50,862 nucleotides of DNA, filler included, from Catajapyx aquilonaris (GCA_000934665.2; 2 parts of 2 records of this genome joined end to end with filler, not necessarily neighbours in it), one strand, 5' to 3'. Shown: positions 4,401 to 48,963, counted from the whole stretch's first letter. A program made the numbers and translations. The notes: a model not told the origin generated them from the sequence alone.

Positions 4401-7400
4401 AGGACTAGAAAATTTTTGTATTGATATGCGGTTTGTGAAACGGTGTGTCGCTGTGACTAATCCACTACATTTTTATTTTCATGTGGCATCAAAAAGCGGA
4501 TGAAAGGTCAAGGTAATCAAGGTAAGCCTGGATTTATTTTGGAAATTATTTTATTGTTGCTTGCTGCGGATGGATTTACAATTTCCTATTTTTTTTATTA
4601 TTGCTGCAGTGTCCAATGGCCCAAAGGACCATGTGAGTGAGCACGAGGATTTCGACTCTTGGAGGAACCAGCACCATCAGGTTTGCGATTTAATTTGGCA
4701 TTCCTTTGGAGTAATTCAACCTATTGCTAAAAAATTGGAGACACAAAAAATATATATATATTTTTTGTTGCCAGTTTACACCATATTAATGTTGCATCTA
4801 AGGTAATTTATTTTGAAAAATAAAACTATAAACGTTGCAAATTGCGACTTTAACTCAGTGCAAGTCTTCCTGTTTACCGAGTTGATTTTCTGCAGTTTAG
4901 ACATTCTTCCTTGTCGCCTATAAATAACCCACCAGGAAAGAAATGCCCAATAAGCAAGCTTCACATGTCACAATCTTTGCATTTTTGTTTCATTGTACCA
5001 GTCTGCGCCTTGGAAACGCTTCTCACTCGGCCAACATGTTGATAGTTAAAATGTTGAAGAAATGCATCTCAAAGATTATAAACGGAATGGTATTGTAGTG
5101 GAAATTCTCAATGCACATAGGTAACTGGCCGCCTCTGGTGAATCTAAAAATGTAATAGGTAATCTTCTCATGGTCCTTAATCCTAATCTGAAGCTAAAGT
5201 AAACCTTGCGATAAGAATAACAGTACTTCATAACACAACCATCTGTCAACAGAGACTTAATTATGTCCGTCCTTTTTCAGGGCTACAACCCGCCAATGTC
5301 GACGTCTATGGCGTCTGACCCTTATCTATCAAGCTACTATGGCACATCCTTCCCGTACCAGGCCTTCGGGGTGGGAGATGGGACCTGGTCAAATGGCGAT
5401 CCCATGACCTTTCTTGGAGGCTATGGAGGCCAGATGGGACACCATGATTCGTACAATCTTGACGGGATGTTCGGAGGGGGAGGAGGTGCCGCCGCTGCAG
5501 CAGCTGCAGCTGCCGCTTCAGGTGAGGCCTATTCCTATTTTCTCGGGAGTAATTTTGTGAGCTAAAAGGGGGAAAATCACTCATCAAGTCCAGCTCTTTG
5601 CAAGTCCGTTGTATGCTCAACTACCGTTTGATACGTCAAAGAGTAATATGTGATTGCCGTTTGTTTATCCAGGTGGGTTTGGAGGGTTCAACCACCAACC
5701 AGCTGCAGCAGCGGCGGCAGCGGCAGCCGCTGCCGGTTTTAATTATGGCTTCCATGGCAATGGCGGCGACTACTCAACATGGGGGAGTTCCTCAATGGTC
5801 CGAAAGCCGTATGATGACTACTACGCCAGAGATGGAGCTGGAGGAGGCGGCGGAGGCGGCGGCGGTGGCGGCAGTGGGGGCGCAGGGGGTGGAGTGGGAG
5901 GAGGGATGTACGGAGTGGAGGAAGTGGCTAGAGGAGGCGGGGCAGGAACTGGGGTCGGGGGTGCTCTGAAGGCAGTGGAGCAGGGGATGCAAGGGTTAGG
6001 TCTGGGTGAGAAGGATAAGGATAAAGAAAAGGTTGAAGCCGTGGGAGTGTCAGCACCGAAAAAGATGACTTGGGCGTCTATTGCGAGTCAACCGGCGAAA
6101 CCGCAACCGGTGCTGAAGAAGAAGACTGGCGGTGGGATACCACCACCACCGATGCTTCCGGGAAAGCACAATTTGGACATTGGCACTTGGGAAGGGAAGA
6201 ATGGCGGAGGAGGTGTGGGTGTGAGTGGGGTCGGAGGTGTTGGGGTGGGGATGGGTGGGGTCGGGGGAGTGGTTGGAGCCAAGGCCGTGGCTCCTCCTGC
6301 CCTGGCAGGTCCGCCTCGCCCGGCATGGGGTGCTCCCAGAGGAAGGGCAGCTGCCGCGGCCGTGGCAGCAGCAGCGGCTGCAGGACATCATCCGCAGCAC
6401 CATCCACAGCATCACCCGGGTCATCTTCAACAGCAGCAGCAGCAGCAGCAACAACAGGTCATTGGAGGACTGGCACAAGTGCAGGGGCCACCACAGCCTC
6501 ATCACTATGCACAGCAGCATGCTCCCAGCAAGTACGTATCTCAATGCAGGAGTGGCTCCTAACTCCGAAGAAAGCATAAAGAATATTGCTGATTTTGTTT
6601 GGTCATTTGATCACGGAGCGGAAGTTCTGCGAGAACAAACCAGTAGCGTTAATCAGTTTTGTGCTTTCCATTACATGTTTTTTGGGATAAAGTGATGATG
6701 AAATTGTGTAGAATATGTCCCAAAGCGTTTCAATTGAAGAACTGGAATACTCAATCAGAAAATATTTTCTACATTGCATGTGTCCCAAGCTGGGATAAAT
6801 TTGTTGTATGGTCTCTTACATTGCTAATTGTGCTTATGCCACTGTAGAAATATTTTTTTTAAATTTGCTGAAAATATTACTGGGAGGTGCCCGATGCCAG
6901 AAGTGTACGTATGTGCACTAGTACGGCCCAAAAAAAGCGCAGTATTTACATTGATAAGCTCCAACAAGTACGCTTAAAAAAACCAGTAATGTCTCATCTC
7001 CAACTCGAATATTTTCAAACTTCGGGCATCTTCGTCTGTGATAATGTGTCTCGCATTATGACTTATGTATTTTCTCTTTCTCCCCCATCTCTCACCTGCT
7101 TTAAAAGTGCGGCCATGACAGTGTCCCTTCCTCCCCCGCCCCCACCTTCCCACCCAGTCTTGGACGACCTCCGCATCCGCAACAACTACAATCCGTGCGA
7201 CTTTGAGCTGACCGCAAAGGGGGCTCGCTTCTTTGTGATCAAGTCATACTCGGAGGACGACATCCACCGTAGCATCAAATACGAGATCTGGTGCAGCACG
7301 GAGCATGGGAACAAGCGATTGGATGCCGCTTTTCGTGAGCGTGAAGCAAAGGGAGGGGGTCCGGTCTTCTTGTTCTTCTCTGTGAATGGTTCGGGCCACT

Positions 7401-8188
7401 TCTGCGGGATGGCCCAGATGACTAGCGCAGTAGATCATGAGTCATGCTCCTCAGTGTGGTCACAGGACAAGTGGAAGGGCCAGTTCAAGGTGCGGTGGGT
7501 TTATGTGAAGGATGTGCCCAATGCGCAGCTACGCCACATCCGGCTGGAGAACAACGAGAATAAGCCAGTGACCAACAGCAGGGACACCCAGGAGGTACCA
7601 TACGAGAAGGGAAAGCAAGTCCTGCGTATCATGCACCAGTTTAGGCACTCCACATCTATCTTTGACGACTTTGTGCACTACGAAAAACGTCAGGAGGAAG
7701 AGGACCAGCGGAAAGCCAGCCAAATCGCTGCTGTTGGGGGAGGAGTGGCCATCGGGGGAGGCGGCGGAGGATCTGCCCCACCGCCGCAGTCCATGGGAGG
7801 AGGTGGCGGCGGTGGCGGTGGACCACCACCAATGCCCTCCATCAAGGTCAGTATTGCTGGTGTACGCAGAATCACCGCGTAATTATTATCGCCTTTCACT
7901 TTCAGCAAGTTAGGCTCCAAAATCGTAACCTCCGAATTGCAAAAGTGTTGTCAGCGAGGCAGCTACTGCATTGCTGGCGTATTTGCTTACATCACCAAAT
8001 TGAAAAATAATTTTTGAATCCCAATTTGGCAAATCACTGAGCCCTTCAATTAGTGTAACAATTGGCACTTTTTTTTTGTGAAAATAATTGCGATAGTATT
8101 GTATTTATCTACTGTACTAATGGTACGCTTTACTTGGCAGGATCGTGAAGGTGGTCGTGGCAGAGGCGGAAGGGGAAGCCGCAACTGA
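1422..8188 (+). CDS. YTHDF: YTH domain-containing family protein (YTHDF, cytoplasmic m6A reader), 7 coding exons, ~669 aa
   Basis: Exons 1422-1448 (MSAGVSDHQ), 4497-4521 (RMKGQGNQ), 4610-4680, 5281-5521, 5673-6531, 7108-7846, 8141-8188 ([15 protein letters not shown]). All introns are GT-AG with matching phases; the total is 2010 nt. YTH domain [32 protein letters not shown]...WSQDKWKG...[11 protein letters not shown] retains the aromatic-cage tryptophans. YTHDF N-terminal motifs [21 protein letters not shown] and LDIGTW are present. Confidence 0.96.
2128..2468. mobile_element. Tc1/mariner-type foldback MITE in YTHDF intron 1
   Basis: Begins CAGTGCTGGAC and ends GTCCAGCACTC, flanked by TA on both sides. 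Near-perfect inverted arms of about 140 bp; no coding capacity. Confidence 0.85.
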
Positions 8189-10566: not shown

Positions 10567-12399
10567 TTATTTGACAATTTCCAGAGCGTATGTGACTGCG
10601 GAGACTGCCATTCCAAAGCACCAGACGTCAAACACAACTCGGAGGTCCTCAAAGGTGTTCATAGCTTCCTTATTCTTCTGAGCGATTAGACCCAGGCCTT
10701 CACTTCTAGCTTTGGCCTGCAGTCCAGGAAGATGATGATGGTAGTTATACGCAGATTCCCACTGGGTCGGCAGTCCGGCTTCAAAGCTGCGGACCAGTGC
10801 GTCCTCTAGAGTCTCCGAGTACACTTCTCCTTTTCCGAAAGCTGGAGCGAGGTACGTGTGCAGGAAACTACTTGGAGACAGACGTATCTGGTTCTCGCCA
10901 GTTGAGGAGACGAAGCTGGGCATTAAGTAATTGGCTCGAAAATTGACAATTATGCAAGCGAAGTCGTCTTCCAATGTTTTCGCCAAGCACTGATGAGAAT
11001 TACTGACATGTGACATCTTGCTTTTCAACTTGACATAATCCGAGACTTCAATTTCGCTCAACACTGGTGTTAGAAAAGCCTGATCAAATTCGGATGTGCC
11101 CCAATTGAAGTCGGATCTGACCAGTGAGCTTAAGCTGTCAGGCATGACCTCTTGACAGGGATGGGTGAAGAACGAGGTCAGTTTGGTCTTGTATCCGCAT
11201 GTGACGATTAGAGCGAAGAGCCAGAGGGACAGAGTGAGGATTCTGTACGAGCGATGAGAAGGCCCTTCCATCGGTTGGTCCACCATCATTCTGGACACCA
11301 GTTCAAACGAGTAGGACAACCTGCCTTTCTTTTCTGGAGGAAGAGACAAGTACAGTGTCAACACAAATGCGAGTAGCGTGAACAATATGACGCACCAGGT
11401 GTTTGTCGTGAATGGATACACTAGAGCCTTCCATGTCCTGATTGCACGAGGCTGACGAGTAGCGTATGTGATGTAGATGAAAGAGAAAGGCGTACCAAAG
11501 TCGATTACTCTCAAGTGCTCGGGGAGTGCCATAAAAATGGGATAGAAGTTAGCCTCCCCTTGGGTCACAATGTCGGTCACATTTGACCAGATAGCTCCGT
11601 ACTGTTCACGATACAGAGTCTTTATGGTGGTGTTCAGCACGTCTTCCCATAGCAACATGATATGTTCCAAGTAGTGAGCTGCCATGTAACCATTTCGCTC
11701 CACCATCTTTCTAGATTCTGGCAGATCCACATTTACGAAAACATACCCAGTGATTGCAAATTTGTTCAGGTTACGAGTAGTGTCCGGATACAGCGATTGG
11801 TTGGGAACGACGCCTCTTGCTAGCAAGGTGTGTCGACCATTGTTGCAGAAGAAGCAGAGAGCGTGCAGAGCAACTGTGTCGTCATACCTGGAGTGTGCAG
11901 CAGCCAGATTGAACCTGATCTGATTGATCGGCGGCTGCATCAGGACCGCTTCACCATCAGTGTCAGGCAACCAGAAGAAGAACTTGTCCAGCTTGTTCCT
12001 TAAATGGACAGTGGAGGCCAGATGTACCAACAGCTGGTTGGCTTTGGATGCTGCGGAAGGTAGAAGGATGTTGAAGGTGCAGCCTCCCTGGGCTGCCCAT
12101 ATTCTGGACCAGTTTCCATACGGCATTGTAGTGAAGGAAATCAGATTTTGTTGGACTGATGATTCCATCCTTGTTATGATCAGAGGTTGATAATCCTGCC
12201 TGAGAATCCTGCGGATATGGATAGGCATTGTTGGTCCATCGGAAGCCAGAACTATGGAGCAACCAGGTCCTTCTTTCTGGATAATATGTGCCAATAATTC
12301 AGTGACGAGCGAGTCATCTTCCATGAAATCACGTCTTGTAACGAGGTTTGCAGCTAATTTGAGGATGGCCAACAAAATTATGGCCTCGAACGTCTTCAT
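10567..12399 (-). CDS. Divergent ionotropic receptor (variant iGluR), intronless, ~610 aa
   Basis: Signal peptide MKTFEAIILLAIL and N-terminal CFFC motif. S1 end IDFGTPF, pre-M1/M1 ALVYPFTTNTW, M3 region LWLFALIVTCGYKTKLTSFFTHP, S2 with CL...FACI and EAGL, and a C-terminal TM segment. Confidence 0.9.
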   Translation of the reverse strand: MKTFEAIILLAILKLAANLVTRRDFMEDDSLVTELLAHIIQKEGPGCSIVLASDGPTMPIHIRRILRQDYQPLIITRMESSVQQNLISFTTMPYGNWSRIWAAQGGCTFNILLPSAASKANQLLVHLASTVHLRNKLDKFFFWLPDTDGEAVLMQPPINQIRFNLAAAHSRYDDTVALHALCFFCNNGRHTLLARGVVPNQSLYPDTTRNLNKFAITGYVFVNVDLPESRKMVERNGYMAAHYLEHIMLLWEDVLNTTIKTLYREQYGAIWSNVTDIVTQGEANFYPIFMALPEHLRVIDFGTPFSFIYITYATRQPRAIRTWKALVYPFTTNTWCVILFTLLAFVLTLYLSLPPEKKGRLSYSFELVSRMMVDQPMEGPSHRSYRILTLSLWLFALIVTCGYKTKLTSFFTHPCQEVMPDSLSSLVRSDFNWGTSEFDQAFLTPVLSEIEVSDYVKLKSKMSHVSNSHQCLAKTLEDDFACIIVNFRANYLMPSFVSSTGENQIRLSPSSFLHTYLAPAFGKGEVYSETLEDALVRSFEAGLPTQWESAYNYHHHLPGLQAKARSEGLGLIAQKNKEAMNTFEDLRVVFDVWCFGMAVSAVTYALEIVK

Positions 12400-12743
12400 T
12401 ATTTGCGGTCGCTGTAATACTTGAAGAGGACAGGAAATGAAATGGCATATTCTGGACACCACCCGAAATCAATTTCATATTGCTTCGAGTGGAAAAGGAC
12501 ATTAATCATTTGTGTGGCTTTTAAAAGAGAGAGAAACGCAATATTTGCATAATCGCAAATGGAAAGCTCCGCCTAAGGGATTGGCACGGCATTGTTGTCG
12601 CAGTTACAAATGATAAACAGCAATTCTGCCAATATGATCATGTCAGTTTAAACAGTGACAGATTGTCTCGCCATAATGTCAACATGCGAATTGACAAATG
12701 CTGTTAATAAGTAAAATCAGGTTCATCAAATTCCTGAAGTGGA

Positions 12744-14734
12744 TTAATGCGGACAGCTGCGAGTTCTCAAGACTTCGGATGCAAAGACCACGCTGGAGAT
12801 CAAACTTCCTTCGACCAGAATGTAAAATGCTCCTTGCAGAATCTCTAGAGAGAACTTGATCTTTCCTTCCTTTTGTTCAGTGTGCGACGAGGGATCGTCG
12901 AAGGAGAATATTTGCATGGTTCTAGCGTGGTCCCAGGCCTTCAGGTGATGGGACAGCCTCTGTCCTTTCACGCTGATTCCTATGGAGTTGTACACACCAA
13001 CGTACCGGTCGAAGCTGTCCGAGTACACGCTGTCTCTTGGAAACACCATCGAGAATGAGAAGTGGAGGATGCTGTCAGAGGACAACATCACCTTCCAGCC
13101 GCCCTTGCCGTCCTGTAGATAAAAGTGCATATATTGTAATAGTGATGCCCATTTTACATTTTGGAAACCCATACCTGGAATGCCATGTCTGCTTCTTTCC
13201 TGAGCCGATACTCGGTTGACAGACAGATTTTGTTTCCTTCGAGTGTGGCTCTGATGCAATCCTGGACACTGTCCAGTCCTCTTCCGTGAACAAACATGTC
13301 GGACAGTATCTTGACCAACTCTTTTCCACCACCCAGCTTCCGGTACAGCTCGTACAACGACTGCTCATACATCACATCGTACCCAGACCCGGGTACGTCC
13401 CTGATCTTTGTCGGTACCGATTCCATCGGAAGCATCAGCAGCAGAGAGAACAGCTTGGTCTTATATCCGACTCCGATGATAAAGGCGAACAACACCCAGG
13501 ATATCAGGACCAGACGATATGACGAGTACTCGGGCGGTACCGGGTACTGTTCCACCAGGGCCATACTGGTGCGACCCAACTGCTTCAGAAGCGACCTCCG
13601 TTTAGACCTTCAACATAGTATGAACATATGTTTGTAACGAACAGTGCCGACTGTGCGTCTAACAATACCTGTTTGTTTCAGGATAGTGCTTCTCGATGAA
13701 TGCTGAGACTGCGCTGACCATCACCACGGAGAGGAAGATGAGGAGCCAGATGAGCGGAGTGAATGGTCGGACGAACACCAGAAGACTATGGTGTGTCCTG
13801 GGATTCCGGACAATGAACCTGAGGCGTCCGATGTCATGGAAGCCAATGAAGTCGACCGCTTGGTAGTACTCCCATGAGTGCATGAAGTACAATGCGAAGG
13901 ACATCTCGCCTGTTAGTAACTTTTCAAATGCGGTCACTCGCTCCTCCTGGTTGTTCAGGTCCACGGCCATCATCTTCCAGGTGAAGTTGAGGACCTGGTG
14001 CAGGAAGCAGATGTGGTACGCTATGAACACCCTCCAGTCGCTGCAGTTTGCTGGTGTGACTGCTATCTCGTTCAGACCCTCCAAAACCTTCCCTTGCAGG
14101 TCAAGGGTCATGTCTTGAAACGCGTTGGTATGGCTCTCAAGTTGCTGGAGAACTGGATTTCCAGAGTTGCAGTAGAAGCAAACTGTGTGACCCTCAAGTG
14201 ACCCACGTTGGTCGAATCGAACAGCCACTTTGTACTTCACCTTTAAGAGAAAGTACAGGGTGCTCATACAATTAGCAAAGTACAGTGTCACAGTAGTACC
14301 TTCGTGAAAAACTCGTCCAGCAAAAACCTGCTTTCGCTGAGGTCATCCCTGACCCAGAACACAAACAGGTCACGAGTCTTTCTTGTCCAGATGACCTGGC
14401 TGTAGTCCACTAGCTGGTCAAGCGAGGAGTTGAACTTTGCGATTGTGAAGGTCACCAAAAGCAAGGCGCACTTAGGTCTCTTCAGCTCTCTTCCGACTGG
14501 TGACACTGGTGGGTCGCCATTGTCCGCTAGCACTGGTCTTCCCAACTGTTGCTGTGCGGTCATCAGATTGGTCAGAGGTGACGGGAAGTGACCTGAGATG
14601 TCATGACCCACCACCAAAGGGCATTGGACTGGAATGTTTCTGAGACATTGCGACACATACTCGGCCACATGTTCGTACTGCACCTCCAATTGTGCTAATG
14701 ATGTCAGCATTAAAGGAAACCACCAGTTTGCCAT
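12744..14734 (-). CDS. Divergent ionotropic receptor with three short introns, ~602 aa
   Basis: Exons 14734-14300, 14240-13669, 13607-13175, 13112-12744. Introns 14299-14241 (59 nt), 13668-13608 (61 nt) and 13174-13113 (62 nt) are all GT-AG. Splicing gives one open 1809-nt frame colinear with the neighbouring intronless IRs (FFTK|VKYKVAV, PETNR|SKRR, MAFQ|DGKGGW). Confidence 0.88.
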
Positions 14735-15396: not shown

Positions 15397-17235
15397 CTAT
15401 CGACCGACATTGGCCCGACGTCTGAAGAACACTTCGAGTCCAAGCACAACAATTGACATGAGATTTCCTTCAGCCAAAATGTAAAAAGCCCCTTGCAATA
15501 TCCCAAGAGAAAGTTTGACCCTTCCTTCTTCGTTCCCATGATGAGACACTGAGAATATCCCCATGATCCTGGCGTGATCCAAGGCCTTCAGATGGTGAGC
15601 CAGCCTCTGCTCCCTGATCTTAATCCCTATGGAATTGTAGATCCCGATGGCCTTGTCGAATCCAGCAGTGTACAAGCTGTCTCTCGGAAACACCATGGAC
15701 AAGGAGTAAAATGCGACGCTGTCTTCTGAGAGCATTGTCTCCCAGCCTCCGTCTCCGTCCTGGAAGTTCTTCTCAGCCTCTCGTCTAAGTCTGATCTGAG
15801 TCGAGACACACACGTTGTCACCTTCTAGTGTCTTCACAGTGCAATTGTGCAGACTCTGTACACCTTTTCCAACCCCAAATATTTCATGCAGCTCCTTAAT
15901 TCCGTGGTTTCCGCCTATCAAGTTCTTGTACAAATCGTAGATGGATTTCTCGTAGAACGTGCGAAACGGCGAACGTTTGAGATCTGCTGCGTTTCGGGGT
16001 ATGTCCTCCTCAGGAAAGAACATCAGCAGTGAGAACAGTTTCGTCTTGTATCCGACACCAAGGATCAATGCAAAAAATATCCAAAATATGAATAGTATGC
16101 GGTACGGCATGTGGTCATCAGACAACATCGGGTATTGCTCCAGAAGCACCATGCTTATTCGACCTAAATGACTTACATACGGCCGTTTATTGTTCTTATT
16201 GAGACCACCATGTATGAGAAGCGAAACGACACTCACCAAAATCAACGATAAAAATATCATGGACCAAAGAAGAGGCGTGAACGACTGTATGAACACGAAC
16301 AGGTTGACTGTCATCCTCTTCGGTTTTCTTGTCATAAACTTGAGCCGACCGACATCATGATACGTTATGAAGTCTACCTTATTGAAATACTTTTCAGAGT
16401 GCATAAAGTACATGATGAAATCTTGTTCACCGCTCATGAAGCTCAAGTAGGCATCTAGTATCTGACTCTTGTTGCGGAGGTCAATCGGGGTTATTCTGAA
16501 AGTGAAGTTGAGAGCTGTTGTCAAGAAGCAGATGTGATGTTCTGTAAGTGTTCTCCAATCGTTGCATCTAGAAGGATCAACTGGAGATTCGCTAAGACCA
16601 TCGAGGATCTTTCCATGAAAGTTGGCAGCCATGTCAGTAAACACTACTTTGCTGGTTACAGGCTGAAGTAATGGGTTGCCAGCATTGCAGTAGAAACAGA
16701 CTGTGTGCAACATCAATCTGGAGTATGGGTTGTTGAAACTGATGGCCACTTTGTGCTTTAACTTATCAGCATGTGCTTCAAACAGATATTGGCTGGTCAA
16801 ATCGTCTCTGATCCACAGAACAAACATGTCGCGTGTCGTTCTGGTGGAAATGACGTCGCTGTGGTCTACAAACTTGGCCATTGAATTGTTGAACGTACTG
16901 GAGCAGAATGTGATGAAATGTATCGCACATGATGGTCTGTCGCGATGATGCTCACTCATAGACACGTGCATGGTCGGATCCATGGTGCAGTTCCATAGGA
17001 CATTTGGCCATGTCTTCTCTACCAGAATTGGTCTTCCCAACAGCTGCTGGTCAGCCATCATCTTTTGCAAAGGGATTGGAAATGATTTGGCTGTGTTGTG
17101 ACCCACAACCAAAGGGCAATGGACAGGCACCTCCTCACGCAAAAGGTCAACCAGAAACTGGGTCACTTTATGCACTTCCATGTCTGATATGGCCAAATAA
17201 GGCAAAACCAAAAACAGAGTCAAACACACCAACAT
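15397..17235 (-). CDS. Divergent ionotropic receptor, intronless, ~612 aa
   Basis: Single ORF; first ATG gives signal peptide MLVCLTLFLVL. Motifs CPLVVGH, VCFYCNAGNP, SFTPLLW, GVGYKTKLFSLLM, CVST and C-terminal TM LQGAFYIL. Confidence 0.92.
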   Translation of the reverse strand: MLVCLTLFLVLPYLAISDMEVHKVTQFLVDLLREEVPVHCPLVVGHNTAKSFPIPLQKMMADQQLLGRPILVEKTWPNVLWNCTMDPTMHVSMSEHHRDRPSCAIHFITFCSSTFNNSMAKFVDHSDVISTRTTRDMFVLWIRDDLTSQYLFEAHADKLKHKVAISFNNPYSRLMLHTVCFYCNAGNPLLQPVTSKVVFTDMAANFHGKILDGLSESPVDPSRCNDWRTLTEHHICFLTTALNFTFRITPIDLRNKSQILDAYLSFMSGEQDFIMYFMHSEKYFNKVDFITYHDVGRLKFMTRKPKRMTVNLFVFIQSFTPLLWSMIFLSLILVSVVSLLIHGGLNKNNKRPYVSHLGRISMVLLEQYPMLSDDHMPYRILFIFWIFFALILGVGYKTKLFSLLMFFPEEDIPRNAADLKRSPFRTFYEKSIYDLYKNLIGGNHGIKELHEIFGVGKGVQSLHNCTVKTLEGDNVCVSTQIRLRREAEKNFQDGDGGWETMLSEDSVAFYSLSMVFPRDSLYTAGFDKAIGIYNSIGIKIREQRLAHHLKALDHARIMGIFSVSHHGNEEGRVKLSLGILQGAFYILAEGNLMSIVVLGLEVFFRRRANVGR

Positions 17236-17619
17236 GACTGCACCATAAAGTAACACCGTATGTAACAACTGAGCTAATCCATGATATGTAATCTATCTCC
17301 GTTGTGTGTGTACGGACTGCAGATCAATTAATGGAAAAGTTAGGACTCGTAACGATTTTGCATTAATCACCACGGAACAAAACACCCATCGGATTAACAA
17401 TTTTTTGTTTTAAAGTGCTACAGCCTACGGTCACTGTGCACAAGAAAATGTCACTCAAACAGTACAAACGCATTTATTGAGCTAAATATCAATAATTCGA
17501 AAGGTTCCCTCAAAAGGGACTGTCCACATTATTTGCTGAAGAGTATGTGCCTTGTAGGGTGTTGTCCTTATTCCACTTATTGTACAACTGCAAATGACAT
17601 TAGGTGACAAGCTGTAGCA

Positions 17620-19518
17620 ATGATGGCAGCTTTGTTGAAATTCGCTATTCTCATGTCTTCCTTATTACGAGATAAGACGGACGTTGAATTACAGGAAGTG
17701 ACAAGTTTTTTGTCCGACTTGATGACCAGGCAATTGCCCATACATTGTCCTCTGGTGGTGGGACACGACGTGTCTGATGGCCATTTGCCGTCTGATTTGC
17801 ACAACTTGATGTCCGACCAGCAACACTCTGGTAGACCTGTATTGGTCACTCGGACATCAAGTGGGACATGGAATTGTAGTCAACATGTCCCTGCCCTTCT
17901 TGACACCTTCTCTGTTGACAAGTACAACAAAACACTCCAGTGTGCCTTGCACTTTCTGACATTCTGTACTGGAACCGCTAATTCTTCACTGCGGACATTT
18001 TTGCAAGAAAATAATGTTGTGGCAGCCAGGAAAACGACGGACTTGTTCGTGTTGTGGCTCAGAGATGACTTAATGGACAGTGGTCATCTCCTGTATGGAC
18101 TAGCCTCACTGATCAAGCACAAAGTGTCGGTTCGTTTCGATGACCAACGGAATATGTTGTTGGACACAGTCTGCTTGTATTGCGACCACGGAAACCCCAT
18201 ACTTCAACACTCCTCTGCCGGAAATAATCACACAATCGCAAAAGTGTTTCAACAAGAGAGTGCGAATAATAATTTGCACGGAAAGTTTCTGGAAGGGCTG
18301 GGTCCATATCCAGCCAACTCCTCCGATTGCAATTACTGGAAACGCAATCCGATTCATCACACTTGCTTCTTGAAAGATGCGCTTAACTTCACGTGGACAA
18401 CAGAACCTGTTGATCTGAGCAACGAGACTGTAATGGCCCATGTCTACTCGCGATTTAATCAGAAAAATATATCGTTTGTCTCAACCGCAATCTTGTCTGC
18501 CCATATTTATCCGTACATGGACAGTGTTCCATGCCATGATGTTGAAAGGCTCAAGTTCATTGTTAGAAAACCGAAGAAGCAGCCGAATCTACTCGTGCTC
18601 ATTCGTCCTTTCTCGTCTCTCATGTGGTGCTTGCTTCTGGTGTCTGTCGTGTCAGTGGGAGCCGCTTGTTTCCTTATTGAGAAGCTACGACGCCGATACA
18701 ACTTGCCTGATGATGGGACACACGTTGATGAGTTGCACCATTTGGCACGTGTGGGTATGGTGTTGCTAGAACAGTATCCCAACTTGCCAAGTTACTCATC
18801 ATCCCGTTTGCTGTTCATGTCCTGGATCATATTCTCATTCATAGCTGCTGGAGTTGGATACAAGACAAAGCTGTTTTCTCTGCTGATGAACTTTCCGGAG
18901 GAGTCTGTACCGAGTACTGTGGAGGAACTTGGTGCATCTGGATTTCACATCTTTCACGACAGGGACGTCTACAGTGTGTTCGGAAGAGTGTCCGGTGGTG
19001 ATGGGTTGGATGCGATGACCGAGGTGTCAGGTCGAGGCACGGTGGTTGACAGCGTCCGGAAGTGCGTGGGTGCGACGCTGGACGGAAACAACGCGTGCGT
19101 CTCCACTGAGTACAGACTGAGCCAGGCGTCGGAGGATATGTTCCAGCAGGGGATGACTCTTCTCTCGGAGGACAGCTTCCTCTTCTTCGCCTTGTCCATG
19201 ATCCTCCCAAGGGACACCCTCTGTTCCTCCAACTTCGGAAGGTCGATCGGAACCTACAACTCGATGGGGATCAGTGTCAAAGGAGCCAGGCTGTCCCATC
19301 ACCTCATGGCCTGGGAACACAGGAGCAAAGGGATGTACTACTCCGCTGATGAGAGCCATGCCAATGAAGGAAGAGTCCAGCTGTCACTAGGCATGTTGAA
19401 AACAGAATTTTTCTTGCTAATTGACTTTTGTGCTCTATCTGCTATTGTTTTTGTTGCTGAATTGTTGACTTCATTCAGACAAACACGCTCATCTCGGCCA
19501 ATTTGTAGCTATAGATGA
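17620..19518 (+). CDS. Divergent ionotropic receptor, intronless, 632 aa
   Basis: Single ORF paralogous to the two preceding IRs (CPLVVGHD, VCLYCDHGNP, RPFSSLMW, GVGYKTKLFSLLM, CVSTEYRL, RLSHHL). Head-to-head with the 15397-17235 gene; AATAAA repeats at about 19631. Confidence 0.92.
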   Translation: MMAALLKFAILMSSLLRDKTDVELQEVTSFLSDLMTRQLPIHCPLVVGHDVSDGHLPSDLHNLMSDQQHSGRPVLVTRTSSGTWNCSQHVPALLDTFSVDKYNKTLQCALHFLTFCTGTANSSLRTFLQENNVVAARKTTDLFVLWLRDDLMDSGHLLYGLASLIKHKVSVRFDDQRNMLLDTVCLYCDHGNPILQHSSAGNNHTIAKVFQQESANNNLHGKFLEGLGPYPANSSDCNYWKRNPIHHTCFLKDALNFTWTTEPVDLSNETVMAHVYSRFNQKNISFVSTAILSAHIYPYMDSVPCHDVERLKFIVRKPKKQPNLLVLIRPFSSLMWCLLLVSVVSVGAACFLIEKLRRRYNLPDDGTHVDELHHLARVGMVLLEQYPNLPSYSSSRLLFMSWIIFSFIAAGVGYKTKLFSLLMNFPEESVPSTVEELGASGFHIFHDRDVYSVFGRVSGGDGLDAMTEVSGRGTVVDSVRKCVGATLDGNNACVSTEYRLSQASEDMFQQGMTLLSEDSFLFFALSMILPRDTLCSSNFGRSIGTYNSMGISVKGARLSHHLMAWEHRSKGMYYSADESHANEGRVQLSLGMLKTEFFLLIDFCALSAIVFVAELLTSFRQTRSSRPICSYR

Positions 19519-19746
19519 ATTGCTTTCCTGAAAACGAGTTGTCCCAAGCATAACCTGCTGTTAGCAAAAAAAAAAAATCCATTTTATTATAAATGCATTC
19601 CTGTATATAAAATGCAAATGTCAACTAAAGAATAAATAAATAAATAATTGTCTGTCAGTGCTGGGCTGTTCATTTCTCGTCCGTTCAAGAGACACCCTGT
19701 TCCTCGTTGAAGTCTGTACAAAGAGTAATCCGCTTCATCCGTGGTG

Positions 19747-22700
19747 TCATTTCTTCTTCTTCCTCTTCTCCTTCTTCTTATTCGTCTTATCCGGCAGAAA
19801 ACTGACAGGCACCACACCAACCGGCGTCTTCTCGTCTTTCTGAAACGCGCGCACGTAATTATGTCTCACATGTGAAATGACATTATAATGATCTGCCCTC
19901 CAATGAGTCGTACCATGTAGGCTGGAGCCAGGTGGTGAATGGCGACCGCCGCACCGGCGTACTTCACCCTGAGGAAGGCCTCGTCCCTATGGGCCTGGTG
20001 GTTCTGTCGGAGGGTCCTGTAGCGCGACTGCCATGCCCTTGCAGCTTGGACCGAATGATCATTTACCCACATCTCCTGCAAGGATATGACACCAGTGGAA
20101 TCATCCGAGCAAAACAATTACAAGTACATCTGAAAGACAGTTCTGCCATCAGATGTAAGAAGACCGTAACTCAAAAACTAGTAAGGGTGAAAGTCGGATG
20201 CATGCCCTGCACTAATCCCCCCCGATTCAGAGGAGATTAGTGCAGGGCGTGCATGCGACTTTCACCCTTACTAGTTTTTGAGTTACGGTCTTCTTACATC
20301 TGACGGCAGCAGTTCTTTCTCTCTCGTGTCCCCCATTGTGATTGATGGTATCCTCCATTTTTACCATTTCTCGCGGCGACACTCCTGACAACTCGGCCAG
20401 CTTGACGTAATCGATGATTCGTTCAGTCTCGTCTGGCTCGGTGTACGGCTGGAAGACATCTTGGATGTCCGGGATGATATCTTCCCTAATGTCGTACCGC
20501 CCCTCCGATAAGGCAAATGAGTCGCCCTGGCACAGCTGCTTCTGCAGCTTCCTGCACAGCACGCAGACACAGAGAAAACAATGGTGACAAAAGTAGTGAT
20601 TATGATATGACCGCGTCAGGGAGCATATACTACATAAGAGGCGCAAACATTCGATTTCCGCGTCTCTCTGTTTGGGGCATTGCCAAGGTTGGCGGCCATT
20701 TTGAATTGGGGGCAACGCCAACGGGGTAGGGTACAGGCAAAAATAGGGTCCGCCATCTTTGATGGTTTTGGCGGACATGGCAACTGCACGGCAAGAAACA
20801 CGCGCGAATCAAAGATGGCGGACCATATTTTTGCCTGTACCCTATATTTACACCTCGTTGGCGTTGCCCCCACTTCAAAATGCCCGCCAGCCTTGGCAAC
20901 GCCCCCAAACAGAGAGACGCGGAAATCGGCGCCTCTTATGTAGTATATGCTCCTTGACCGCGTCTCGACCGCGTTTGCAACTCTATTAAGTGATGAGACA
21001 ATAAAGGTACTGACCAAACCTGAGGGTCCTCCAACCCGGTCGCCCGGTCCGCCAACCGGCCGGCAGAAGGCACCTTCTGGGCCATCCATGCCACCTTCTC
21101 CATATTCTCTCTAGCAGCTCGATCCCTTACCTCTTCTATGGCCAGCGGGAAAGTGGACCTTCTGGCCAGCAGGGCTGAATCGGCCTCGGGATCGGGGGAC
21201 CTGAGTTTGGCTATGAGCTCGGCTATGGAAATGGCCCCAGCGGAGCCAGAGAGATCGTCCACCGACCGTTGATCCCCGGTGATGTTGGTCTTGCGGGACC
21301 ATACACTTGTAACCTCTCCGGCGTCTGCCCCGGAGTCTGCCCCGGGGCGAGACCGGAGAGCGACTGCTGACCGTGCCCCGCCGGGGCCAATCGCGACCCG
21401 ATCGTCCTCGGCAACTTCTCCTGAGACTTCCCCAGTGACAGCGACCTTTGACCTGGCCCGGATCTTGCTGGGGTCCTTCTTCAGCGCCTTCGGGATCCCT
21501 TCGTGTCGCGACTTGGACAGGGTGTCCGTCCTTGGAAAAGACCATTCATCTGTGACGTCCTCATCATCCGCCTCCTCCGTATCCCACGAAACCATCGACG
21601 AAACCCGCCTTCCTTCTCTTCTTCCCCTCTTCTTCTTCTCATCCTCGACACTGTCCAAGTCGCTGCTGCGTCTTAACAGAGAACAAAGCTGCCGTCAGAT
21701 ATGAGAAGACCGTAACTCAATGTCCACTTCCCCTTGCGGCGAGAATAAAAGCAGTGGTACCAAAAGCACCCAACAGGTGGAGTTGGGATGCCGTTCCTTT
21801 TCCCCCCCCTTCCCCCAACGCCACCTCTTGGATGCTTTCGGTAACACTTGCTTTCTTTTCTCGCCGCAAGGGAAGTGGATATTGAGTTACGGTCCTCTCA
21901 CATCTGACGGCAGAAAGAGTGTATATACATTGCATGAGCGGTCCAGAGAGAAGGCCAACAACTTCTTACCTTCTGTACCCCTTCTTCTGCATCTGCTGGG
22001 ACTGCATTTCTAATTCTCTTTCCATTTCGATCTTCTGCATGCGCTTCATGTTTTCGTTGGCTATCCCCTATATAATATTATACAGGGTGTAACAAGACCC
22101 TATATGCTGAAATTTCGACAGATTTGATCTTACCAGGAGGCATCTGGCGTCCTCGGCATCCCGTCTGGCCTCGAACAATAGCTGCTGGTACCTGCTGGAC
22201 TCTTCCCTCATCTGCTGGAGCTCTGTCTTGCATCCCTCCCATTGCATCTGGAGGTAGTAGTTTTCTGTCCTGGAATCACACAGGGCCACCTCCGTCTCAT
22301 GGTCTACTATCGGCACCTCCTTCACCACCGGGTTCTCCAACAAGTCGTTCAATTGGTCCTTCAGATCCTGGATTTGGGTCAATTTCGTGTACTGGATATC
22401 CACCAGCTCCTTGTACAGTTTCTCCATCGCCTTCACACCCTCCGTAATCGCCCTCAGTGCCCTCATTTCAATCCTGAAGTGGTCTCCCTGAAATGATTCG
22501 GCATGTGGAGTTGATAGGAAAATAATTGATTAGAAGAAAAAAAAGAGTCGAATGAAATATACCTCAATCTGTCTTCGGCGCACTTTCATGATCTCTCTGA
22601 GTGTGATTTCAAACTTTTTGCTCTGCTCTGATCCCATCGCTCTCATGTGCATTGCCATTGCATCTTGGACGAGAATCGTCACACCTTCGATCAAGTCATT

Positions 22701-24277
22701 TCGCTGGAAAGACCATTTCGTGAAAACCAAAAGGCAAAGGAGTTTAATAATTGGTAAGTCAATCAAATTCAACAGGATGAACGTACGATCCCTTAAAAAC
22801 AATACATAACCAGGCAGGGAGCATATAATACACATAAGAGGCGCAAACATTCGATTTCCGCGTCTCTCTGTTTGGGGAGTTGCCATGGCTGGCGGCCATT
22901 TTGAAGTGTGGCGAACGCCAATAGGGTACAGGCAACATAGGGTCCGCCATCTTTGATTCACGCGTGTTCTTGCCATATGTAGTTGCCATGGCCGCTAAAA
23001 CCATCAAAGATGCCGGACCATATTTTTGCCTGTACCCTATTTATACCTCGTTGGCGTTCCCCACACTTCAAAATGGCCGCCAGCCTTGGCAACGGCCCCA
23101 AACAGAGAGACGCGAACATCAAAGGCGCCGACAGAAGTTTGCGCCTCTTATGTAGTATATGCTCCCTGACATAACTAGTAATAGAGTGCCTCAGTGCCAT
23201 CTCTCAGTGCCTCTCTAGTTTGTTTGAAATCCCCAACAGGCACATGCATTTTAATTTAAAAAAAAATCACCTCCTTGGCCCTTTCTGACGCCAATTTGTT
23301 GGCTCCCAAAGTTCGCATAAATGCCTCGCGCATCTCCCTTTTGCAGGACAGTCTCAGTTCAGTCAGTCGATCCCTGTACTCTTTCTGGATGTCATGGTTC
23401 GTGTCATGAAGCTTCCTGTAACTGCAAATGGGCAAAGAGAAAAACAACATGTGTCCCAAGTCTGTATGTGAAATAATAAAATAATTATTGCAAAAAAAAA
23501 AACTCTCTCTCTCTCTGGATCATCGGTTTTGCTCGTATTGCAATTAACTTACGTGGCTATGGCGGAATCATGCACGTATTGCAGGATTTGCCCAGTTCGA
23601 GCAGTCATGATGGTGTGAAATTCCAACCTGATAGAAAGTAGCTCCTGAAAGATCAAAACAAAATTAAGAAGATTAAGCCAAAAATAATTGTTCTGTTTCT
23701 CAAATCGTGCAAATGCAATAAATGAAAAAGCCAAACGAGAGCCATCAAACCTTCTCTATCTGGCGGACAACGACTGAGGTAGCCTTGATGTCAGGTAGGG
23801 ACGCTTCATCTGTCTGGGTATATGCATCATCACAAATGTAGCCCACCCTCAACTGTTTGAAGAGGTCGAGTCTGTCGAAGTCAAATGGATATACGCGGGT
23901 CAGAGGTGTCCGGAACTTTATTATTTTTTTAAAAAATAAAATACAATTCATATTATATACTTTGGAGGATCGCTTTCAGGTCCCTTTCCTTCCATTACGT
24001 TACCATATCCGTCCAAGGTCTTCTGGAGGATGTCGATCCTCTTGACCCAAGCCACATACTTTGGCGGGTTGTACTCCACGTACCTGAAAATTGAGCATGT
24101 TGCAACATAATTATTCCGGGAAAGATAAGCACTTCTTGGGCACCAAAATCTCCAGAAAGTATGTCCTTCTTTTCATTCCTTTTTTATTCAATTAATTTGT
24201 TTAAAAAATCTTTACCTTCCCGGTGCCTGGTGCGGGAAAGAGCCCTGGGTCGCCTCCGTCGGCCATCTTGTCGACAT
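19747..24277 (-). CDS. C10orf67: C10orf67-like coiled-coil protein (DUF4709/DUF4724-like), 12 coding exons, ~746 aa
   Basis: Exons 24277-24216, 24083-23961, 23871-23751 (the exon 2/3 boundary has an alternative), 23644-23553, 23421-23271, 22703-22563, 22487-22134, 22067-21970, 21671-21015, 20551-20365, 20075-19914, 19839-19747. Introns are GT-AG and phases close. LRVGYICDDAYTQTDEASLPDIK...LSIRLEF resembles my recollection of the DUF4709 core (LKIGFFSTDHATQTD...LQVDF). WQSRYRTLRQNHQAHRDEAFLR resembles the conserved C-terminal block. The gene structure is better supported than the name. Confidence 0.72.
20143..20309. mobile_element. Hairpin MITE, family B copy 1 (intron 10 of C10orf67-like gene)
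   Basis: TIR CTGCC(A/G)TCAGATGTAAGAAGACCGTAACTCAA; almost fully palindromic; flanked by direct repeat CAGTT. Confidence 0.85.
20617..20956. mobile_element. P-superfamily-like MITE, family C copy 1 (intron 9)
   Basis: TIR CAGGGAGCATATACTACATAAGAGGCGC (CANRG terminus), long inverted arms, 7-bp TSD ACCGCGT at 20610-20616 and 20957-20963. Confidence 0.85.
21689..21913. mobile_element. Hairpin MITE, family B copy 2 (intron 8)
   Basis: Same ~32-bp TIR as 20143-20309 but a different palindromic interior; flanked by direct repeat AAAG. Confidence 0.85.
22811..23168. mobile_element. P-superfamily-like MITE, family C copy 2 (intron 5), opposite orientation to copy 1
   Basis: Same TIR and arms as 20617-20956; the central spacer is its reverse complement. 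7-bp TSD ACATAAC at 22804-22810 and 23169-23175. Confidence 0.85.
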
Positions 24278-25513: not shown

Positions 25514-25613
25514 NNNNNNNNNNNNNNNNNNNNNNNNNNNNNNNNNNNNNNNNNNNNTTAATTAATTAANNNNNNNNNNNNNNNNNNNNNNNNNNNNNNN
25601 NNNNNNNNNNNNN
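25514..25613. other. Assembly gap spacer (44 N + TTAATTAATTAA + 44 N)
   Basis: Exactly 100 nt, with a central linker that has stop codons in all six frames; an artificial contig join. Confidence 0.92.
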
Positions 25614-25689: not shown

Positions 25690-26330
25690 AACCATCCCCG
25701 CTCTCCCCTAGTCACCAGGCAGATAGGCCCTCATGTTCGTAGAGAGATGGAATTTTCTAACATGAGTCCAGAGATAAGAAGACTTTAGGCAAGCTTTTAT
25801 CTCATCGACTCGTGTGCCTCGTGGAACAACAGGCAATGTCTGTCTGAAGTCCCCAGCCAAAACCAAAGTTACTCCACCCATAATCTTTTTGCATTCCCGG
25901 ATATCCTACAGTGTCCTGTCCAGAGCTTCAAAAACTGCTTTGTGGGACATGGTGCACTCATCCCAAACAATTAACCTGCCCTGACTCAAAAGTTGTGCCA
26001 CCCCGGTACCCTTGCTGATGTTGCACGTTGCATTTTTCTGTGTAGCTAAATTTAAAGGAAGTTTGAAAGCTGCATGGGCAGTCCTCCCACCTGGCAAAAG
26101 AGTAGATGCTTTGCCAGAAGAGGCAACCGCAAGTGCAATTTGTTGATCCTGAAGAACGTTCGCCAACAACAGATTAGTCACAAATGTTTTACCAGTTCCT
26201 CCTGGTGCATCAAGGAAAAAAACTCCCACCTTTCTGATGACCCTGGACATTGTCTACAATTGTCGAATAAGCAGATCTCCGATCTGGTAGCAACTTTGGT
26301 TCAGCAACCTCTTGAACGTTGTTGCCGTGG
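25690..26330 (-). mobile_element. Helitron RepHel relic (PIF1-family helicase fragment)
   Basis: FLDAPGGTGKT (Walker A), VASSG, GGRTAH and IVWDECTM (Walker B). After an in-frame TAG at 25906-25908 it continues MGGVTLVLAGDFRQTLPVVPRG...LSTNMR. Truncated and flanked by gaps. Confidence 0.88.
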
Positions 26331-26974
26331 CGACGTTTTTTTTTTTTTTTGTACATAATATTAATGAAATGTNNNNNNNNNNNNNNGGGAAGGGGGTGGG
26401 GGGTAGTTGTGGGGAAGAGGGTAGGGTGGGGGGTTGGGGCATGGAACAGGAGGGGGCGGGCGGATGGAGGAGTGGATGTGAAGGGGGAGACGAACGGGGG
26501 CTTTTTTGGCGGACGAAGAATGTATGAAAAGGCCTGGAGGTGGCGGCATGAGGAGAGGGTGATGTGACCAAAGTGGATGTGACCACTTGGGCCTTGAGAG
26601 AAGGAAGGACCATTTCCATGGCAACTTGTTTATACCAATATGCGGATTATTAGAACAGGGGGCCAAACTCCCTGAGTCCTTTCCGCCTCCTGTGGCCAAG
26701 GATGACCTCGGAGGTCAATTCCAATGTGCTTAAAACCTTCCCAGTAAAAAACTACCCGTAATGATACCCCTGGGGCATATGTCGAGGCCTCTGTATGGAT
26801 CTGATGAGGTCACAAGGGGACAGACATACGGTAGGTCTTGAAATATATATTAAGATATAATAGCAGAACTCTTTGGTGGCCTTTCGTTGACACTGTTTAC
26901 TCGAATTGTTGAGGTCATTTCTATGGAAACTTGAAAAGTGGGAGGTTACAGAAGTATATTCTATGATGTCCTAG

Positions 26975-29075: not shown

Positions 29076-31799
29076 GCAGGTGAGGACAAGGAGCCCTTAC
29101 CTCTAACATCTGGGCCAAGAAAAGACGATTTTCCAGACGACTGCTTTCTTATGGTCACCCAGCTGCGTTGGGAAGATGACGTTATATGGAATGGAGATGA
29201 CGTAAAGCACAAGGTCATGCAGAAGCTGAACTCCAAGAATAGTGCAGCTGGTTGGGTACCTTCCAGTTTCAATCGCACGGCACAGAACTTCAGCCAACCA
29301 GGAACAAGTGCTAGCACTAAAGCCATGCCACCCATAGTTGCGCCTGGAATGAAGCAGGGTCAAGGATCAGGAACCAACTCAAAGGCCAAGCAGCAACAAG
29401 TGCCCAAGAAAGAGGAAGCCTTAGATGATACATGGTATTCTATATTCCCTGTTGAGAATGAGGAGCTGGTGTACGGTTGTTGGGAGAATGAGGTCATATG
29501 GGACTCAGAATCCATGATCAACATTCCGGAGCCCAAAATACTCACTCTGGATCCCAATGATGACAATATTGTTCTTGAGATACCTAATGACATTGACCCA
29601 GCCACGATGCGAACATCTGAAGCTCCTGCAAAGGTTAGTTGAGTCTTGATTAAAAGTTGAAAGTATTACAGTAGATATGTGTCTTGTGGTTGTAAACCAC
29701 TTGATATTGGAAATCAGCTATAGAACTTTGTTACATTTATAACTCGAGACCTTGGGGGGTGAAGAACGATCTAGGTCCACTTTTTGTCAAAAATGAGTTA
29801 CCACTTACCTATCCTATAACATAGTTTTGCTAGTGTAGAATATGATGGTTTGGTCATGGTTGTGGAGTAATGATCATAGTCTACTATGGAATGCTCCAAA
29901 TTTGGGATGTACAATACAATATCAATAGAAAGTTATTGGTCTTCAAAGTTTGAAATTGCAATATCTCAGTTTCACCTGAAGTGGACCTTTATTGTTATTC
30001 CCCCGAGGTCTTCAACTATAAGGACATTTTGTCCAGAGCGGTAAAGGGTCACTTCCAGGATGGGTTTTTCCTGAGTACACCATTTTTTATGTAATTGTAT
30101 TGTATTGTTTAAAATAATGTAAGATGAAATAGTGAAACTCAGTTTTGTCTTGTCTATTCCAGTATTGCAAATATCTGCATTTTAAATGCACCGTTGTTCA
30201 ATTTTTTGATGTGAATACGTCTTTAAAATCAGGCCCGTAGAGAGGGGGGGGCATGCAGGCAAACTTGAGCGTTACAGTCTATTATAACCGAGTATACTAT
30301 ATCCGAGCCTATTATAACCGAGTATACTATATCCGAGTCTACTATATCCGAAGTTGCTAAATTCAGGAGGCATGGAGGCAAACTCGAGCATTACAGAAAA
30401 GCGTTACAGGCTATTTCTTTTATTTTTTATTATTTATTTTTTATTATTTTTTTGCATTTCCCCATTGGGATTTACCATATCCTTTAGGGGGGTGGATTAC
30501 CACCATCAGAAATTGGAGCCATATAGGAAGATCTTAATTAATTACTCCAGGGTAGGTAGGAGGGGATGTGCAAAGTGCAAGTGCAATGTCTCTAACGGTC
30601 ATTTTGTGAACTCCCTCGGGTGGCTTAGTCTATCGGATATTGCCACCCGAAATGAAGCCAGAGTTGGCCCAACTCTGCACAGATAAAGGTGGGAACCCCG
30701 GGTGGGGATCGAACCCGGGACCTTAATATCCGTGGGCGCGAGCGTTACCGCTGCACCACTTCACCTCTCGTTACAGTCTATTATAACAGTCTATTATAAC
30801 AGTCTTATTATAGCAGAGTCTACTATATCCAAAGTGGCTAAATTCGGATCCGCATAGGGGGCATGGAGGCAAACTCAGCGTTACAGAAAAGTGTTACAGG
30901 CTATTATAACCGAGTCTACTATACGGTATCCGAAGTGGCGTGTGAGTGTTATAGTCAGGACCCTGCCAGGGGGTCCTGCCATGGGGCCCATGGCAGGGGG
31001 CATGCAGGGAAATTCTTAGGAGGGTCACCATGAGTGTCCAGACTTTAGTGTCACCATGCATGTGTCCAGACTTTACGGTCACCACATGAATGTGTCCAGA
31101 CTTTAGGATTACCATGCATGTGTCCAGACTTCAATACTGATAATAAGCAATCAATTCACTCCCCCCAATACTGATCCAATTTTAAAGACGTATTCACGTC
31201 AAAACTTGCTGTTGTGTTCCCGACACAACCTAATGTTTGTTTGTTTTTTCTCTTTTTAAAATCACAGGAGTTGCTAGAGATGCTAGGTAATTGTATATTA
31301 ATTAATTTCAATTTAATTCCTAGAAAAATTAAAGCAGTAGTAGATGACTCTGGATTGTTAGAGTTGCATATTGCACACTAAAACAGATCATCAACCCCTT
31401 CGCTACCAGATAGGCCCGAACCATGTAGATTTCGGCTTACTTACGCCTACTCCCAAGATACGGACAAGATATTTTACCAATAATAACAGCCATACTTACC
31501 AGATCTGGGAAAACACTACGAATGTGTCTGGAACAATTTTACTCATCTAGAAGTCCCTAAATTAATTTCCAAAAAGGGCTATAAAAACTCGAAATTCGAG
31601 TACTGCTGCCCAACTGTTAGGCTGATTTAATTGTGAAATGCATGAAAACATGCGGAATAACAACCTTGACAACCATGCCAGACTACTGAAATCGTCGTAC
31701 TTTGCGAGAAGTAAATTAATAATTATTTGCGGCTTTTTGACACTTCAGAAAACTCCCAAATTTGAGTTTTCCGAAGTGCAACAAGCTGCAAATAAGTAT

Positions 31800-31870
<71 letters not shown>

Positions 31871-33866: not shown

Positions 33867-33907
<41 letters not shown>

Positions 33908-37814: not shown

Positions 37815-37873
37815 GTCAGATAGCACTTTATTTTAACTGTTTTTTTTTACACAGGTACCAGACCTATATTTTG

Positions 37874-43965: not shown

Positions 43966-44120
43966 TATAATCAAGGCGAGAATGTTCGGACACAATATTG
44001 AACAGGTGACAATTGGCCCGGATAGGATTAGGCAGGAAAGGAAAGTAGGTGCAGAGGATTAGTGGGAGGTGCATTTTGGAAGGACATTGTGTTACGCTGT
44101 TTTCTTGAATTTTTGCAAAC

Positions 44121-48900: not shown

Positions 48901-48963
48901 TGTAAATAATCTAGAATAATTTCAGCACACACACAAATCAGCTTCAGCGGGAGAGAGTCCATT

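Follow-up and report, generated by a model that had tools for sequence, protein, structure and literature searches.

The window analyzed here, meaning the whole stretch of DNA under study, comprises 50,862 nucleotides (nt) from Catajapyx aquilonaris (GCA_000934665.2), with parts of two records joined end to end by filler. Searching this 50.9-kb window by tblastn with the proteins of the cluster itself recovered no more than four related loci of ionotropic receptor (IR) type, which we refer to as A, B, C and D. Three of the four (A, C and D) are single-exon genes, and the exception is B, whose coding span at 12744-14734 on the minus strand is interrupted by three probable introns of about 60 nt. 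Our results favor, with moderate confidence, the hypothesis that the ancestor of the cluster was intronless and that the three introns were gained later on the B lineage as separate insertions of unrelated DNA. An earlier reading of the sequence (the original prediction) had described introns private to one member of an otherwise intronless cluster, in which the more distant fourth receptor, A, was intronless as well. Comparison with A, C and D bears this out, and A is indeed a single open reading frame (ORF) from ATG to stop.

The coding sequence of B begins with an ATG at 14734 and ends with a TAA at 12746-12744. Joined, its four exons amount to 1809 nt, that is 602 codons and a stop, and contain no internal stop codon. 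Exon 1 (14300..14734, minus strand; 145 codons) ends in ...ACG AAG|GT and encodes the N-terminal region, with a likely signal peptide; it aligns with the corresponding portion of C and D. According to the family alignment, exon 2 (13669..14240, minus strand; 572 nt) encodes the S1 ligand-binding lobe and the first membrane segment, with 46% identity to C in tblastn. The pore region, including the invariant motif GYKTKL, and the beginning of S2 fall in exon 3 (13175..13607, minus strand; 433 nt), which gives a weak match to Pfam Lig_chan (15.5 bits, E 0.015), and the remainder of S2 together with the last membrane segment falls in exon 4 (12744..13112, minus strand; 122 codons and the TAA), which is 59% identical to C in tblastn. 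As judged from its sequence, B is probably an intact and functional, if very divergent, receptor gene of the ionotropic glutamate receptor (iGluR) superfamily.

The introns, likewise on the minus strand, lie at 14241..14299 (intron 1; 59 nt, phase 0, GTACTA...TTAAAG), 13608..13668 (intron 2; 61 nt, phase 2, splitting the arginine codon AG|G, GTATTG...TTGAAG) and 13113..13174 (intron 3; 62 nt, phase 0, GTATGG...CTACAG). All three have GT..AG termini, and the excision of each restores the conserved frame. None of the lengths is divisible by three, and if retained the introns would lead to a stop after 3, 3 and 6 codons, respectively. Their guanine-plus-cytosine (GC) contents of 0.39, 0.39 and 0.32 resemble the values of 0.33-0.39 in the DNA that separates the receptor genes, the exons being at 0.51. 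The claim in the original prediction that GT-AG introns of 59, 61 and 62 nt rejoin four ORF pieces in one frame colinear with the paralogs was confirmed by the coordinates, the joined frame and the alignment. The same holds for the position of all three introns at AG|G sites, the triplet AGG occurring 35 times in the 1809 nt of B coding sequence (1.9% of positions), and for the sequence repeated at the junctions, which reads AAG|GT on either side of intron 1, AG|GT at intron 2 and CAG|G at intron 3.

The acceptor is AAG in two of the three introns, and in two of three the donor has a base other than G at position +5. Both AAG acceptors and donors without G at +5 are weak relative to the metazoan consensus, which is a general yardstick rather than the consensus of this genome. 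The in-window control set consisted of two introns of a TAF1 gene (29634-34660 and 37353-37551), and one of the two control donors (GTATTT) is no better than those of B. Of the three introns, intron 1 alone contains a strict CTRAY motif (CTAAT, located 31 nt from its 3' end); branch points are degenerate in animals. The direct repeat previously noted inside intron 1 is real and nominally unusual: the 9-nt sequence CTGTACTTT occurs twice, 27 nt apart (window 14250-14285), and was matched by 5 in 1000 shuffles (P=0.005, uncorrected for six tests). By eye, the start of exon 2 (AAGTACA) is partly complementary to this repeat.

The paralogs provide the uninterrupted state for comparison. Paralog C (15400..17235, minus strand) consists of one ORF of 612 codons, shares 48.5% identity with B and is uninterrupted at all three sites. 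Paralog D (17620..19515, plus strand) is a single ORF of 632 codons, 41.3% identical to B and arranged head-to-head with C, and the distant paralog A (10570..12399, minus strand) is a single ORF of 610 codons with 23.5% identity to B. The pieces of B align end to end with A, C and D, and against C the junctions 1 and 3 are gapless. Junction 2 lies in the linker after the first membrane segment, the length of which varies among all four genes, and in B the exons alone fill this linker. At site 3, C displays the same exon context, CAG|GAC, without interruption. Since the exons of B alone match the paralogs at the junctions, the gaps are pure insertions relative to the paralogs and not converted coding sequence. 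Intronization of former coding sequence was considered and rejected, the exons alone giving the full paralog length at all three sites. Between the start codons of C and D lie 384 nt of intergenic sequence (17236-17619), an arrangement which suggests that the two genes share a bidirectional promoter region, and the stop of B and the ATG of A are 344 nt apart.

Judged by profile and alignment, the cluster consists of very divergent IR-type receptors, and the membership of B rests on its 41-48% identity to C and D. Against Pfam PF00060 (Lig_chan), A exceeds the cut-off of 30.8 with 31.8 bits, whereas C stays below it with 23 bits and D has no match at E 0.01. A profile built from A, C and D matches the structures of NMDA, AMPA, kainate and delta receptors at E 1e-10 over profile positions 257-481, and it matches 3074 library proteins. 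Among the top ten matches, which were looked up, five are named, each being an "ionotropic glutamate receptor ... domain-containing" protein from the springtail Orchesella dallaii (E 1e-68). The lengths of the cluster proteins, 602-632 residues, would suit an S1-M1-pore-M3-S2-M4 layout of about 600 residues without a large amino-terminal domain, in which the membrane segments were placed by eye on the alignment. Among the 156 profile-search relatives compared, no library protein was closer to B, C or D than approximately 20-25% identity. A word-indexed protein search at E<=0.001 returned no relative for C, nor for an alignment including the B pieces, and related loci were found in metagenome contigs neither with the full-length profile nor with an alignment of the conserved pore region.

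Two sets of results bear on the reality of the introns and on the state of the gene. In a chance simulation, 20000 random pieces of 59-62 nt from the non-coding DNA of the window were inserted into A, C or D. An insert could be removed exactly as a GT..AG unit in 92/20000 cases (0.46%), and given a tolerance of +-6 nt at each end, removal restored the frame in 2807/20000 (14%), such that three chance mimics in a row have a probability between 1e-7 (exact) and 3e-3 (lenient). On this basis the three gaps are very likely real introns, and they would be ordinary U2-type GT-AG introns of minimal size, presumably spliced. The expectation in the original prediction that automated annotation would call B a pseudogene is a guess; GT-AG introns of 60 nt are within reach of ordinary eukaryotic gene finders. 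With respect to constraint, B preserves 61 of the 74 family columns without variation among C, D and A (82%), compared with 61/73 (84%) for C and 61/90 (68%) for D in the same test. Identity between B and C at the three codon positions is 0.61/0.74/0.39, and the ratio of nonsynonymous to synonymous divergence (dN/dS, NG86) is 0.12. B shows no sign of relaxed constraint.

The pattern at this locus has close parallels in print. In the dipluran Campodea augens, six introns are reported from at least five lineages of mostly intronless IRs, described as "gained independently" and "never lost" within lineages (Manni et al. 2019, PMC6938034), and idiosyncratic intron gains in mostly intronless expansions of divergent IRs are reported for the cockroach Blattella germanica (Robertson et al. 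2018, PMC6175461). B shares with these cases the receptor superfamily and a tandem, single-exon, fast-evolving background. It also shares with the cases as described there the restriction of introns to single lineages, the phases 0 and 2, and differing positions, and in one of the Campodea lineages a phase-2 intron follows one of phase 0, as in B. The accounts differ from ours in that the published lineages carry one or two introns each ("single, and rarely two") in many genes, whereas B has three introns in one gene with two intronless sisters. Moreover, the cluster comes from another taxon, and its proteins are as distant from the library as stated above. Titles and abstract openings of the literature on intronless IRs and on springtail IRs make no mention of IR intron gain beyond Campodea and Blattella, and PMC13388675 does not treat IR introns. 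The B locus thus adds to a pattern of IR intron gain already in print for two other hexapods, and with three introns in one gene it stands at the upper end.

For the relationships among the genes, a tree was built from the cluster and 43 outside relatives of 560-720 residues, taken from 60 profile-search relatives after removal of 17 that lay outside this length range. B, C and D group in a single clade (SH-aLRT 100), A falls far outside on a long branch, the branch of B is long, and introns are present in B only. These results, with which the published pattern agrees, sustain the argument in the original prediction that gain is simpler than precise loss in the neighbors. Gain on the B lineage appears the more parsimonious explanation of the alignment and tree, and we hold it to be some two to three times as probable as retention, plausible if unproven. 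One candidate line of support was dropped, namely the use of single-ORF library proteins as proof of intronless relatives: full-length TAF1 is found on Logan contigs of 6-10 kb, which suggests that many such contigs are transcripts. Dating by silent sites was also rejected on account of saturation.

Several points weigh against gain and have to be set beside it when the alternatives are considered. That B could instead be a pseudogene, hit by three unremoved insertions that merely resemble introns, would agree with the abundance of pseudogenes in large chemoreceptor families (37% of the Campodea IRs as reported in PMC6938034) and with the lack of a canonical poly(A) signal (AATAAA or ATTAAA) in the 275 nt after the B stop (12469-12743). 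However, the probability of three exact GT..AG units arising by chance is as low as given above, all four exons are open with no further frameshift or stop over 1809 nt, and B is conserved as much as C at the family-invariant columns, and we therefore regard a dead gene as very improbable. A stronger competitor, although still an unlikely one, is that the introns date back to the common ancestor of B, C and D, or even to that of all four genes, and disappeared completely from C, D and (if required) A, for instance by recombination with spliced complementary DNA (cDNA). Such cDNA-mediated loss can erase several introns at once, and with one event for each whole-gene conversion the number of losses comes to 2-3 (1-2 if C and D are sisters), against 3 gains. 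The branching order within B, C and D has support below 80, and a single loss in a common ancestor of C and D, following entry of the introns on the stem of the three genes, is possible. Roy and Penny (2006, as listed in PMC3443670) are said to have argued that supposed gains among paralogs frequently proved to be losses. In addition, D has a gap of 4 residues (12 nt) two residues past site 3, which could be read as the scar of an imprecise intron deletion, although indels are frequent across the alignment, and an A12 run 51 nt past its stop, followed by three overlapping AATAAA at 116-124 nt (window 19516-19640). The ancestral state itself is taken from four genes and the literature, the best outside identity to B being 20-25%. 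Finally, silent-site divergence (dS) among B, C and D is saturated (NG86 2.5-3.6; LWL85 1.6-1.9, without the B-C pair), and consequently nothing shows the gains to be recent; the events may be very old.

Set against retention is the fact that A, C and D each lack all three introns, and lack them precisely. No poly(A)-tail relics follow A or C, and from this and the tandem arrangement it follows that the neighbors resemble DNA-level duplicates and not retrocopies. AAG acceptors, occurring twice, are unexpected in old and optimized introns, as measured by the general consensus. In the best-studied parallel, Campodea, gained IR introns are described as persisting once acquired (PMC6938034), and divergent IR clades are reported to be ancestrally intronless (PMC6938034, PMC6175461). 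If the introns were indeed gained, the cluster ancestor would have been intronless, as divergent hexapod IR clades usually are, and the B lineage would have acquired the three introns at AG|G(T) proto-splice sites, after the old duplications that gave rise to B, C and D. Each insertion would have consisted of unrelated AT-rich DNA, the source of which is no longer recognizable here. We hypothesize that stray DNA was captured during end-joining repair and was subsequently selected for spliceability, with nonsense-mediated decay as a backstop. Capture by end-joining would be the best-fitting mechanism, but the locus carries no positive signature of any insertion mechanism, which also counts against our reading.

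The original prediction had noted short repeats that span the splice sites and had named repair-mediated insertion as one possible origin, which the repeats do not support. The junction repeats measure 5, 4 and 4 nt in introns 1, 2 and 3, and both TAF1 control introns, as defined by spliced alignment to insect TAF1, have 4-nt junction repeats of the same kind (AG|GT...AG|GT and CAG|G...CAG|G). Since both controls show the same short repeats, those of B reflect the splice consensus and not a signature of repair. Among 307 novel introns of Drosophila, a published analysis identified 7 with repeats of 8 bp or more and ascribed them to end-joining capture (Farlow et al. 2010, PMC2809761), and novel introns of both Daphnia and Drosophila have been interpreted as DNA captured by end-joining (Farlow et al. 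2011, PMC3020277; Li et al. 2009, as cited in PMC2809761 and PMC3020277). The introns of B resemble these novel introns in being short inserts of unknown origin with a length that is not a multiple of three and a stop upon retention, and in having sub-consensus splice sites and AGGT-type sequence at both junctions. Novel Drosophila introns are reported to have weak splice sites (PMC2809761), with which the sub-consensus sites of B fit, weakness in B being judged from the general consensus. In contrast to the repair repeats of at least 8 bp in Drosophila, the repeats in B are no more than splice consensus, and whereas the Drosophila and Daphnia cases were dated by close species or populations, the nearest paralog of B is saturated at silent sites.

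The other proposal in the original prediction, tiny introner-like elements, likewise found no positive signature. Introners and introner-like elements are multicopy intron-generating elements described from algae, fungi and others (PMC3443670). They carry or create splice sites and can yield several new introns in intron-poor genes, in which they are similar to the introns of B, but introners are related copies, whereas the introns of B show no relationship among themselves or with any other part of the window and have neither terminal repeats nor a fold. In line with the original prediction, no similarity was found between any two of the introns (p 0.19-0.84). On both strands of the window, the best local matches to the introns score 21-26, whereas shuffled introns average 24.7-25.4 and reach up to 30-31, and no source and no duplicate of the adjoining exons rises above shuffles within the 50-kb window. 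None of the introns has a significant inverted repeat, and none folds beyond its shuffles (z +0.27, -0.97 and +0.86 for introns 1, 2 and 3). The small palindromes that had been noted in intron 2 are at chance level (longest inverted repeat 6 nt, P=0.30). Hairpin elements were rejected on the inverted-repeat and fold tests. Tandem duplication of an AGGT-containing exon segment was rejected as well, the best local matches of each intron lying elsewhere in the window and at shuffle level, and the GC content of the introns being unlike that of exons.

A broader version of this idea is that the introns were copied, either as mobile introner-like units or from short introns of other genes, through reverse splicing and cDNA recombination and possibly in one event. 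The use of AG|G at all three sites in a coding sequence where such positions are scarce would agree with copying, as would the near-identical minimal lengths and the intron-like composition. So would the confinement of all three introns to one of three sister genes, which has a probability of 1/9 if gains are independent and equally likely per gene; this figure hints weakly at one joint event or at a propensity specific to the gene. Against copying stand the dissimilarity of the three introns, the absence of terminal inverted repeats and hairpins, and the absence of copies above shuffles in the other 50 kb of the window, which is a very small sample of the genome. Reverse splicing into new sites has, according to PMC3443670, never been observed in vivo. 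We consider copying improbable. Similarly improbable, in our estimation, is that the introns entered B jointly (for example through a B cDNA into which excised introns were reverse-spliced at AG|G), or that an active process in the genome seeds minimal introns into single-exon chemoreceptor genes. If either were true, the locus would offer a rare natural handle on the birth of spliceosomal introns in animals.

Few intron gains in animals are clear-cut, and the mechanism is disputed. A single-exon family with occasional private introns allows clean comparisons of the states before and after gain, and the B locus is a well-defined case, with three putative gains in one gene and three uninterrupted paralogs alongside. 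It also carries a correction, insofar that 4-5-nt "repeats" across splice sites are no evidence for repair-mediated gain. For annotation, our results suggest that B should be entered as an intact four-exon receptor, rather than as a pseudogene or as fragments.

The remainder of the window holds several unrelated features. The TAF1 gene (TFIID subunit 1) occupies 29085-37816 on the plus strand in four exons (29085-29633, 34661-~35005, ~36937-37352 and 37552-37816). Its two fixed introns, those of the control set, are 5027 and 199 nt long, and for the third junction (35005 to 36937) no consistent GT..AG join was found. One of the TAF1 exons shares 70-81% identity with numerous insects, as against 63% with a springtail. 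The TAF1 homology ends at 37816, a few kb ahead of a Ty3/gypsy-type, retrovirus-like element at 44109-50219 on the plus strand. This element encodes gag with a zinc knuckle and pol with protease, reverse transcriptase, RNase H and integrase, a C-terminal piece of the integrase lying in another frame, and its env-like ORF matches the Baculovirus F protein, in the layout of an insect errantivirus. On the plus strand at 5654-7879 lies a YTH-domain gene of m6A-reader type, in which the ORF 6872-7879 matches the YT521-B-like domain at E 7e-54 and the ORF of 302 codons directly upstream has no Pfam match. A fragment of a PIF1-like helicase (25909-26253, minus strand; E 3e-33) adjoins runs of N at 25514-25613 and 26373-26386 and may be part of a Helitron-type element. 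Finally, a 2.8-kb run of overlapping or abutting ORFs of 153-252 codons extends over 20230-22994 on the minus strand, none of them with a Pfam match at E 0.001; two of these ORFs (22071-22529 and 22533-22994) share a frame and are separated by one stop, and the run may represent a decayed gene or element.

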